Source: Candidatus Hecatella orcuttiae
GTDB lineage: Archaea; Thermoproteota; Bathyarchaeia; Hecatellales; Hecatellaceae
Reading direction: 5' to 3'
Assembly (NCBI GenBank): GCA_002011035.2
Contig: MTLY02000003.1
Span: 640,001-704,000, forward strand
DNA: 64,000 bases
Shown: positions 10,110-36,408 of the stretch, in pieces
Position numbering within the stretch: position 1 is the first letter of the stretch
Layout: every line of letters starts with the position of its first letter
Made by a program: the position numbers and the translations under genes
The notes under the pieces: generated by a model
Seen by the model: only the letters and a program-made list of their open reading frames with translations
What the model was told of the DNA's origin: nothing
Database searches by the model: none

Positions 10110-11054
10110 ATGCTTCTGTTCTGCAACAAGTGCGGGAGAAGCCCCCCTGTCTTTTTCCGCCCTTACTCAGGGGAGCGGCTGTGCAGGGGATGTTTCCTCC
10201 GCTCCGTGGAGAAGCAGGTCCGCCAGACCGTTTCCAAATACCGCATGTTCAGGGAGCAGGACAAGATAGCCGTCGCCCTGTCCGGGGGGAAGGACAGCCT
10301 GGCCCTCCTTTACATTCTCCACCGGATTGAGAAAAACTTCCCCAAGGCCCGGCTCTTCGCCCTCACCGTCGACGAGGGCATCCCCCACTACCGGGAGGAA
10401 GCCGTGAAAAACGCCCGGAAGGCCTGCGAAGAATTGAACGTGGAACATGTGGTAGTGAGCTTCCGGGAGCTCTACGGCTTCACCCTCCAAACCCTAGCGG
10501 AAAAAATCAAAGACATCCGAGGGGAGATGACCCCCTGTTCCTACTGCGGAGTCCTCCGGCGGAGGGCTTTGAACAAGGTCGCCCGAGAAATGGGCGCCGA
10601 CAAACTGGCCACAGCGCATACCTTGGACGATGAGGTTCAGACTATGCTGCTCAACCTAGTCCACGGCGACATCCGCCGGATTTCGAGGGTGGAAGCCGTC
10701 ACCCCTGGGGCTGAGAAGCTGGTGCAGAGGGTGAAGCCTTTCAGCGAGGTTCCTGAGAACGAGGTCGCCCTCTACGCCTACCTGAAGGGCGTTGACTTCC
10801 AATCTTCCATCTGCCCCTATGCGCCCCAAGCCTTGAGGACGGAGGTCAGGGAGTTTGTAAACCGGCTGGAGGCTAGGCATCCTGGCTCCAAGTTTAAGCT
10901 CTACCGCTCCTTCGAGAAGCTTAAGCCCGCGGTGAAGGCGTCCTTCCCATCCCAGCTTTCTCAGTGCCAACTCTGCGGGGAGCCGGCTTCTCAGCCCCTC
11001 TGCGAACCCTGCCGCCTCCTAGAAAGCCTGAGGGCTAAGTTCCCGAAGCTTTAA
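10110..11054 (+). CDS. tRNA 2-thiolation protein (TtuA/Ncs6, TIGR00269-like)
   Basis: N- and C-terminal CxxC zinc fingers, PP-loop SGGKDS, 'CSYCGVLRR', 'AHTLDD'. Confidence 0.9.
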   Translation: MLLFCNKCGRSPPVFFRPYSGERLCRGCFLRSVEKQVRQTVSKYRMFREQDKIAVALSGGKDSLALLYILHRIEKNFPKARLFALTVDEGIPHYREEAVKNARKACEELNVEHVVVSFRELYGFTLQTLAEKIKDIRGEMTPCSYCGVLRRRALNKVAREMGADKLATAHTLDDEVQTMLLNLVHGDIRRISRVEAVTPGAEKLVQRVKPFSEVPENEVALYAYLKGVDFQSSICPYAPQALRTEVREFVNRLEARHPGSKFKLYRSFEKLKPAVKASFPSQLSQCQLCGEPASQPLCEPCRLLESLRAKFPKL

Positions 11055-35743: not shown

Positions 35744-35825
35744 CAGAGCGTATCCGACTTCGGTGCTTCGCGCTTTCACCTAAATCCAGCAAAGCTGGAC
35801 TTCAGATACGCTCGGAACGTTAAGT
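35738..35825 (+). mobile_element. Integron attC-like recombination site (solitary)
   Basis: R'' GCCTAAC (contains the upstream stop codon) and R' GTTAAGT; arms GAGCGTATC (35746-54) / GATACGCTC (35805-13); internal hairpin TCCAGC-AAA-GCTGGA. Confidence 0.7.
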
Positions 35826-35920
35826 GAGACATTTTGTTCTATTTCAAGATCGATTTAGAGTTACCACTACGTCTGCAACACTACAAATGCAACACCCTAA
35901 GATTCAACAGAACCCGCGGA

Positions 35921-35936
35921 GGGAAAAGTTAATTAT
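35921..35936 (+). promoter_or_regulatory. BRE/TATA of the tRNA-Lys gene
   Basis: GGGAAAAG followed by TTAATTAT, predicting a start site near 35956-35960. Confidence 0.6.
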
Positions 35937-35972
35937 TTCTCCCCTGATAGTAACCATGGGCCTGCCAGAACT

Positions 35973-36126
35973 GGGCCCGTAGGCTGCCAGCCGCAGCCGG
36001 GAGGCTCAGCTAGGATAGAGCACCGGGCTTTTACGGGCCACCCGCCCAAAGCCACCCGGAAGAAGAAAGGCCAAGCCCGCCTCTTCTGGGGAAGGGTCTC
36101 GGGTTCGATTCCCGACGGGCCCGCCA
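35973..36126 (+). tRNA. tRNA-Lys(UUU) with introns at 9/10 (35982-36003), 37/38 (36034-36053) and 43/44 (36060-36093); a possible fourth intron would move the 5' end to 35958
   Basis: Spliced 78-nt cloverleaf: GGGCCCG TA GCTC-AGCTAGGATA-GAGC A CCGGG CTTTTAA CCCGG GGGTC TCGGG TTCGATT CCCGA CGGGCCC G CCA; BHB motifs at the junctions. Confidence 0.93.
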
Positions 36127-36408
36127 TTTCACTGGTTTAACGAATTCTTAAGCATTTGTTTATCAGCTGTATGAATTGTTTCTAAGGAAATAGCAGCGTC
36201 GTTGGTTGAAGGCTTTGGGAGCTGGCTTAGGATTAAACACTGTTCTGCTTTGATTTCCAGATTCAGTCTTAATTCTCCACTTCACCCATCCTAGAAAAGA
36301 CCCCTCTTCTGTTTCTGTTGTTCCCTTGTCTGAAATGTGTTAAAGCCGGTAGGAAACATGCAAAACTATTTAATCTATAAGCTTCAATAAGATACTGAGG
36401 GTATTTTT

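Follow-up and report, generated by a model that had tools for sequence, protein, structure and literature searches.

A tRNA-Lys(UUU) gene interrupted by three introns is present on the forward strand at positions 35973-36126 of the DNA stretch analyzed here (the window: 64,000 nucleotides (nt), positions 640,001 to 704,000 of contig MTLY02000003.1 of Candidatus Hecatella orcuttiae). The introns lie between tRNA positions 9 and 10 (22 nt), 37 and 38 (20 nt), and 43 and 44 (34 nt), and each is contained within a bulge-helix-bulge (BHB) splicing motif. Judged from its sequence, this is almost certainly a real and functional gene. We assign a probability of about 0.88 to the fuller statement that it is functional, that it is apparently the only tRNA-Lys(UUU) gene of this Bathyarchaeia-like archaeon, and that its three introns are spliced as proposed. 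The gene is a new example of a known phenomenon, found in a new lineage and partly at an uncommon site.

In the proposed pathway, the gene would yield one precursor transcript of ~160-170 nt. A two-subunit, crenarchaeal-type (alpha-beta)2 endonuclease would then cleave both bulges of each motif, and the RtcB ligase would join the exons. Removal of intron 1 would require a fold that excludes the cloverleaf, in which bases 4-7 pair with the 3' end of the intron and bases 1-3, -1, and -2 pair with positions 11-15. Intron 3 would be removed first, with intron 2 still in place, followed by intron 2; intron 1 would be independent of both. The anatomy of the gene, its conservation, its covariation, and the presence of the enzymes are established here.

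Exons, splicing motifs, and the need for the gene

The gene consists, in order, of GGGCCCGUA, 22 nt, GCUCAGCUAGGAUAGAGCACCGGGCUUUUA, 20 nt, ACCCGG, 34 nt, and GGGUCUCGGGUUCGAUUCCCGACGGGCCCGCCA. Exon 1 (35973-35981, +) contains tRNA positions 1-9 (GGGCCCG UA), and the same 9-mer occurs in every orthologue compared. Exon 2 (36004-36033, +; positions 10-37) carries the D-arm, the 5' strand of the anticodon stem, and the loop bases CUUUUA with the anticodon UUU; it is 93% identical over 30 nt to an intron-less orthologue. Exon 3 (36054-36059, +) is only 6 nt long (positions 38-43, ACCCGG), and this hexamer is unbroken in intron-less orthologues. Exon 4 (36094-36126, +) supplies the variable loop GGGUC, the T-arm, the 3' strand of the acceptor stem, the discriminator G, and CCA; tmRNA/tRNA-like models match its T-arm at 36098-36115. 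An earlier note on this DNA had predicted that removal of the three introns leaves a clean, 78-nt cloverleaf with an encoded CCA. This holds: the four exons, when joined by coordinates, are called tRNA-Lys(ttt) by ARAGORN, which folds them with every stem intact (acceptor stem of 7 base pairs (bp), D-stem of 4 bp, anticodon stem of 5 bp with the loop CUUUUAA, variable loop of 5 nt, T-stem of 5 bp, and encoded CCA). With our custom scoring, the spliced product has a cloverleaf score of 14, the top value in the census of tRNA genes given below. The start of the gene, previously placed at 35971, is corrected to 35973; the preceding CT (35971-35972) is leader. The gene is neither split nor permuted, since its four exons are colinear, on one strand, and within 154 nt.

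The three motifs have the form ascribed to them in the earlier note. Intron 1 (35982-36003, +) lies in a strict hBHBh' motif, with a central helix CCCG/CGGG (4/4 pairs), an outer helix CUGGG/CUCAG (5 pairs, including one G-U), an inner helix GCUGC/GCAGC (5 pairs), and the bulges UA^G and AG^G. Three of the five outer pairs are formed within the mature tRNA (G1-C13, G2.U12, and G3-C11). Intron 2 (36034-36053, +), at the canonical 37/38 site, also has a strict hBHBh' motif: its central helix is CUUU/AAAG (4/4), its outer helix is the 5-bp anticodon stem, and its inner helix has 4 bp. The last three bases of this intron, GCC, are also part of the outer helix of motif 3. The motif of intron 3 (36060-36093, +) is relaxed. 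Its central helix, ACCC/GGGG, has 3/4 pairs with an A.G mismatch, its outer helix has 3 bp, and its inner helix has 6 bp.

The same introns are obtained by a custom motif solver, which takes a T-arm and complementary acceptor strands as input, lists candidate introns by BHB geometry (a 4-bp central helix, 3-nt bulges, and flanking helices), and looks for sets of up to three introns that restore a cloverleaf. Given only the acceptor ends, the top solution is exactly these three introns. Other boundaries for intron 3 returned by the solver (for example, 36062-36091, which yields a 9-nt variable loop) were rejected; uninterrupted orthologues have the 5-nt GGGUC. When the interior of the gene was randomized by mononucleotide shuffling, while the acceptor strands and T-arm were kept constant, no solution emerged from 997 of 1000 shuffles, and the best of the other three scored 9 versus 14 for the real gene.

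Relatives provide the exon joins directly. Of 41 genomes searched with the locus by BLAST, 32 gave a match, in most cases through the T-arm alone. Three genomes of the same family but of two other genera (G005, G009, and G006) have introns at 37/38 and 43/44 and none at 9/10, while the only intron of G008, from another genus of the family, is one of 24 nt at 9/10. At 37/38, the intron of G002 and G007 measures 13 nt and those of G035 and G040 are longer; G030 and G018 are free of introns. The sequence GGGCCCGUA-GCUCAG is unbroken in six genome orthologues (G005, G006, G009, G007, G002, and G035), and CUUUUA-ACCCGG-GGGUC is unbroken in G030, G018, and G008. Uninterrupted genes contain ...CUUUUAACCCGGGGGUC... 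and GGGCCCGUAGCUCAG..., which are identical, letter for letter, to the predicted joins. In addition, a contig of run X9 has ...GCACCGGGCTTTTAACCCGG directly 5' of the position matching 36094. The central helix of intron 3 is perfect in G005, G006, and G009 (ACCC/GGGU), and a U-to-G change in the genome carrying this window (G000) produces the A.G mismatch; the inner helix of intron 3 shows compensatory changes between G000 and these three. Another tRNA-Lys(UUU) gene, L013 (G025:C10), is unbroken to the T-arm, and its acceptor 3' strand stops after CCGGG, followed by unrelated sequence (taattgtcag...). The break may mark an intron close to the 3' terminus of the acceptor stem, or the edge of a split gene.

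Standard annotation tools do not recover the gene, as had been anticipated. By default, ARAGORN reports 0 tRNA genes in the window; with the -i option it miscalls the locus Gly(gcc), and with introns allowed it reports no tRNA-Lys in the whole genome. Rfam has no match at the locus at its gathering threshold, the RF00005 score there being 21.3 bits versus a cut-off of 29. Because standard finders miss such genes, the tRNA complement, completeness, and codon-capacity estimates of metagenome-assembled genomes of this kind will be wrong unless intron-aware tools are used.

Rejection by the standard finders and the one imperfect motif (the A.G in intron 3) would be expected if the locus were a decaying pseudogene, that is, a tRNA-Lys gene that has gathered insertions and fallen out of use. 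However, all four exons are intact and are 91-97% identical to orthologues while the introns diverge, each insertion lies exactly within a splicing motif, and the architecture is kept across several genera and metagenomes. None of the 1000 shuffles mimics the gene, and AAA codons are common, yet four search methods recovered no second tRNA-Lys(UUU) gene. A pseudogene is therefore very unlikely. The arrangement could instead be an assembly artefact or a chimera of the metagenome bin, given a 3-contig assembly with an estimated contamination of 4.25%. Against this, a 3944-nt DNA contig of run X4 (possibly the source of the assembly) covers 35800-36300 with 0 differences, and a 222-nt contig of run X7 (record 5, not flagged as source) covers all three introns, also with 0 differences; X4, X7, and X9 are all DNA runs. 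The same three sites are occupied in other metagenome contigs (L089, L090, and L091/L096). An artefact is thus extremely improbable, and a functional, spliced gene remains by far the better account.

The need for the gene was assessed by searching the genome (1.75 Mb, 3 contigs) for a second tRNA-Lys gene with either anticodon. Four methods were used: ARAGORN with introns, Infernal with RF00005 to E = 1, the motif solver with loose seeds, and BLAST with an intron-less orthologue. None found one. The earlier note had named another intact tRNA-Lys(UUU) gene as a sign that this locus is a pseudogene; these searches revealed none. The best BLAST match of the intron-less orthologue in G000 outside the locus (C2:99871-99907) is a tRNA-Arg(GCG) with a D-loop insert, and a match in G004 (L008) is a tRNA-Arg(UCU). 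Two low-scoring "TTT" solutions (C1:412193-412432 and C3:663416-663653) require long, relaxed introns, are rejected by ARAGORN, and are taken to be false. A loose regular-expression scan for the anticodon arm of Lys genes was far too noisy and was not used. Among 445 long open frames, AAA occurs at 31.5 per 1000 codons, with AAA and AAG each accounting for ~3% of codons.

The enzymes needed for splicing are encoded in the same genome. Two endonuclease genes match PF01974, with 99.1 and 81.6 bits, and an RtcB ligase is present (589.8 bits). The assignment of the endonuclease subunits uses catalytic residues of EndA whose identity is in part presumed. For the 184-amino acid (aa) protein (L021:1231-1785), the best match is 3P1Z_B, the catalytic alpha chain of EndA from Aeropyrum pernix (E 1e-46); the protein has a His aligned with the catalytic site, as in wild-type 3P1Z (3AJV, which is mutated, has Ala there). 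In the 189-aa protein, the position aligned with the catalytic His is a Pro, which fits a non-catalytic, structural partner. Its best matches are 5X89 and 1A79, the EndA proteins of M. kandleri and M. jannaschii (E 1e-35 and 4e-27), versus E 1e-13 for the alpha chains from A. pernix (3AJV_B/3P1Z_B); among the matches listed, none is labelled a crenarchaeal beta subunit. The gene for the 189-aa protein (L022:1474-2043, -, on G000:C2) adjoins that for histidyl-tRNA synthetase (HisRS), and the gene for the catalytic subunit adjoins one for a beta-CASP nuclease. By its sequence, then, the genome encodes a two-subunit, crenarchaeal-type (alpha-beta)2 splicing endonuclease, a predicted heterotetramer whose two paralogues (184 aa, catalytic, and 189 aa, with Pro at His) provide the subunit type that the earlier note had asked for. 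The broad specificity that it had said would be needed is also in keeping with the 184-aa protein, whose Crenarchaea-specific loop aligns ungapped with that of A. pernix (IAKPKT versus VEKPRG) and has Lys at the positions of both K44 and R46. In A. pernix, K44 is required for cutting non-canonical introns (PMC3241643).

Candidate signals flank the gene. The A/T-rich box AAAAGTTAATTATTT (35924-35938, +), ending 35 nt before tRNA position 1, is a candidate archaeal promoter element, consisting of a transcription factor B recognition element (BRE) and a TATA box. Comparable A/T-rich boxes lie ~32-33 nt upstream of the G005 and G006 orthologues, and the box may act as a promoter element. The T-rich trailer TTTCACTGGTTT (36127-36138, +) is a possible transcription stop. 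An antisense frame of 64 aa (35933-36127, -) spans the whole tRNA gene and is almost certainly not a gene, but software that predicts open reading frames could report it instead of the tRNA. Elsewhere in the window, at 10511-11028 (-; G000:C3:650511-651028), ARAGORN with introns gives a "tRNA-Leu(caa)" with a 422-nt insert, which may be spurious or may represent a tRNA interrupted by one large insertion or by several.

The intron at position 9/10

The splicing motif of intron 1 is built from parts of the tRNA that are otherwise engaged in the cloverleaf. In this motif, the partner of acceptor bases 4-7 is the 3' end of the intron, and that of bases 1-3 is positions 11-13. Since the motif uses both acceptor bases and the D-arm, the acceptor stem and the D-stem are both excluded while it is formed. 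The 5' leader bases C and T (35971-35972, +) lengthen the outer helix, with U(-1) pairing with A14 and C(-2) with G15. The three pairs within the mature sequence would survive 5' processing, so the leader is not an absolute requirement.

An intron at this site is not confined to G000 and G008. Public metagenome contigs were scanned for a 12-40-nt insert between GGGCCCGTA and a Lys(UUU) D-arm, yielding 10 loci that represent seven new, distinct sequences and one identical to G008. There are thus nine distinct Lys(UUU) genes with a 9/10 intron (G000, G008, and the seven metagenome sequences), eight of them in addition to the gene described here. A class-wide pattern search of 401 genomes matched a 9/10 insert in G000 only, with a pattern so narrow that it missed G008; this result is a poor guide to how widely the intron is distributed. 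Across the nine genes, the exons are 91-97% identical to those of G000, while intron 1 is only 41-72% identical and varies from 19 to 33 nt. Nonetheless, the central helix has 3 or 4 of 4 pairs in all nine, the outer helix has 3-6 pairs, the inner helix has 3-11 pairs of unrelated sequence, and the 3' bulge is AG^G or AA^G. This combination of conserved exons, divergent introns, and a maintained motif argues for a spliced intron under structural constraint rather than for decay. The outer helix continues into the leader in five of the nine genes, reaching 4-6 pairs. Two of the nine (L089 and L092) lack an encoded CCA, having CAC and CCT after the discriminator; the other seven encode it.

As judged from these sequences, the 9/10 intron is conserved within a group of uncultured archaea and is not private to this gene. 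A tree of HisRS plus the beta-CASP nuclease (18 genomes, 843 columns) places G000 as sister to the genus of G008, with a Shimodaira-Hasegawa-like approximate likelihood ratio (SH-aLRT) support of 98; the other clade (SH-aLRT 99) contains G002/G007 and G005/G006/G009. The distribution among the seven of 14 family genomes with an assembled gene is most simply read as a single gain of the intron at 9/10. Among the metagenome Lys genes, six of the eight possible intron combinations are present; consequently, losses or further gains must have occurred.

The earlier note had called 9/10 an unusual site. This stands insofar as the site is absent from the non-canonical positions named in the text of a review (3/4, 20/21, 22/23, 25/26, 29/30, 30/31, 45/46, 53/54, 56/57, and 59/60; PMC4090602), a comparison that covers the text and not the review's full map, which is a figure. 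With nine distinct genes, however, it is not a one-off.

The introns at 37/38 and 43/44

The motifs of introns 2 and 3 compete for the same bases. The outer helix of motif 2 is formed by positions 39-43 (the anticodon stem), and the central helix of motif 3 by positions 38-41; because both use the overlapping strand 38-43, the two motifs cannot coexist. Moreover, in the exon-side helix of motif 3, variable-loop bases 45-47 (GGU) pair with GCC at the end of intron 2 (36051-36053). When intron 2 is removed, this partner of the variable loop is gone.

Among 19 distinct Lys(UUU) genes, intron 3 is present in seven, each time together with intron 2, and never alone (0/19). Intron 2 ends in GCC in all seven genes with intron 3; it ends in GAA or GTT in all seven genes with intron 2 alone. 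Since the helix between GCC and the variable loop needs intron 2, intron 3 would have to go before intron 2, and the sequences suggest this order of cutting. In published descriptions of neighbouring introns, one may have to be removed before the motif of the next can form (PMC8450103).

Alternatively, the gene may be spliced with no obligatory order, intron 3 being cut equally well after intron 2 by way of its central and inner helices (an HBh'-type motif). The GCC end of intron 2 would then reflect inherited history and not function. Broad-specificity (alpha-beta)2 enzymes do cleave relaxed motifs that lack a helix (PMC3241643, PMC4090602), intron 3 without intron 2 would retain its 6-bp inner helix and 3/4 central helix, and the genes with GCC may share one ancestor, as G005, G006, and G009 form one clade. 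On the other hand, the GCC end accompanies intron 3 in 7/7 genes and is absent from 7/7 genes with intron 2 only, G000 and G005/G006/G009 lie on opposite sides of the family tree, intron 3 is without intron 2 in none of the 19 genes, and sequential removal of neighbouring introns is described in the tRNAscan-SE 2.0 paper (PMC8450103). Splicing without a fixed order seems less likely than the preferred order, intron 3 and then intron 2, but retains an appreciable probability.

Several points weigh against the reading of 35973-36126 as a functional, apparently sole tRNA-Lys(UUU) gene that is spliced as proposed. Transcription, cleavage, ligation, and the order of cutting are inferred from the sequence. 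The association with GCC and the absence of intron 3 alone come from related sequences, which are not independent events, and the seven metagenome genes were chosen for having a 9/10 insert. The central helix of intron 3 is weakened by the A.G mismatch in this genome, where three relatives have A-U. ViennaRNA (37 °C) favours a cloverleaf-like structure in which the introns form hairpins (-75.9 kcal/mol); forcing motif 1, 2, or 3 costs 10.4, 7.4, or 8.3 kcal/mol, respectively, over this optimum, and the stability of the whole precursor is unremarkable (z = -1.65). Because the endonuclease binds the motif, these energies are taken as uninformative. Finally, "only Lys gene" means that no other turned up with four methods in an assembly estimated to be 97% complete, with an incomplete census of its tRNA genes. 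All four likewise failed to recover a tRNA-Lys(CUU) gene, which may be absent, split, disrupted to a greater degree, or located in sequence missing from the assembly.

Intron load of the genome and known systems

A census of the genome gave 27 tRNA genes for which ARAGORN accepts the full-length spliced product. Thirteen have no intron, five have one, five have two, and four have three. The census is rough and incomplete, as many anticodons are missing and the entries for Cys(aca) and a 94-nt "Met" look wrong, but it suggests that about half of the recoverable tRNA genes carry introns. Convincing multi-intron genes include Phe(GAA), Ser(GCU), Ala(GGC), and Pro(GGG). Phe(GAA) and Ser(GCU) have three introns each, and Ala(GGC) has two (37/38 and 44/45). 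The single intron of Thr(GGU), at 8/9, lies in a strict motif, as does that of Met(CAU) at 7/8; the latter gene also has an intron at 37/38. Examples of intron-bearing loci are C2:322050-322200 (-), C3:311255-311404 (+), C2:281904-282017 (-), and C3:415607-415704 (-); at several of these multi-intron loci, ARAGORN -i gives wrong anticodons. With introns at 7/8, 8/9, and 9/10 in different tRNAs, the junction between the acceptor stem and the D-arm has been used repeatedly in this genome.

A tRNA-like gene outside the window (G000:C1:357090-357240, -), with the anticodon loop CUCAUAA (Met/CAU), has its acceptor stem and first 16 nt in common with the Lys gene. Its 43/44 insert is homologous to intron 3 of the Lys gene (common GGCCAAGCCC...GCCUC.UC.GGGGAA), with an alignment score of 16 compared to a shuffle mean of -8.3 (standard deviation 3.7) and 0 of 2000 shuffles scoring as high. 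This similarity suggests intron spread or gene conversion between the two tRNA genes. The 94-nt solver parse of this gene is probably wrong. A blastn-short search of the genome for other copies of the introns gave only chance-level, partial matches (17 nt, E 0.22, for intron 1 at best) and was insensitive, having missed this homologue of intron 3.

Three points may together distinguish this gene and its lineage, a combined proposal that we put at somewhat short of even odds: (a) a long-lived 9/10 intron whose motif draws on the D-arm, the 5' strand of the acceptor stem, and, in roughly half of these genes, the leader; (b) a 43/44 intron that takes a helix from the 3' end of the 37/38 intron, so that the order is fixed as intron 3 and then intron 2; and a Bathyarchaeia-like family with a Thermoproteales-like load of tRNA introns. 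The texts consulted describe neither (a) nor (b). If the proposal is correct, splicing of intron 1 must precede or compete with folding of the cloverleaf, and perhaps with cleavage by RNase P, and intron 3 is evolutionarily and mechanistically dependent on intron 2. The intron-2/3 pair would offer a compact, natural test of how overlapping, mutually exclusive motifs are dealt with by the endonuclease, and could also reveal whether one intron can come to depend on another. The known mechanism of archaeal tRNA splicing is unchanged by these findings, which extend multi-intron tRNA genes from Thermoproteales and Asgard archaea to a Bathyarchaeia lineage.

In Asgard archaea, multi-intron tRNA genes have also been reported (bioRxiv 10.64898/2026.10.13.758758). 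That system, like the present one, is found in an intron-rich lineage outside Thermoproteales; its introns lie at splicing motifs, have been gained and lost repeatedly, and are missed by standard annotators when present in the 5' part and D-arm. It belongs, however, to a different phylum, and the main text of that paper has 0 occurrences each of "Position 9" and "Bathyarchae". The sole mention of Bathyarchaeota in PMC7714728 is in a footnote that explains the term TACK superphylum.

The closest solved relative of the catalytic subunit is that of the (alpha-beta)2 EndA of A. pernix, whose specificity-loop Lys is kept here. That enzyme cuts motif-borne introns outside the anticodon loop, its substrate being a pre-tRNA-Thr with a D-loop intron (PMC3241643). 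In contrast to the Lys gene, this substrate has a single intron, and the second subunit encoded here is nearer to EndA of the M. kandleri/M. jannaschii type.

The nearest parallel to the gene itself is in Thermoproteales, where multi-intron tRNA genes have motif-borne introns at many positions (PMC4090602, PMC4033280, PMC8450103, PMC3218864). The earlier note had such genes mainly described in this order, and they are indeed well documented there; the lineage here is Bathyarchaeia/Hecatellales. As in Pyrobaculum, Thermofilum, and Caldivirga, the introns reside in strict or relaxed BHB motifs and are accompanied by a heterotetrameric endonuclease (here a predicted one), neighbouring introns can require stepwise removal, as proposed here for introns 2 and 3, and similar introns are present in different tRNA genes of one genome. 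Unlike these systems, the gene described here belongs to Bathyarchaeia (Ca. Hecatellales), and the exon-side helix of one of its motifs is supplied by a neighbouring intron.

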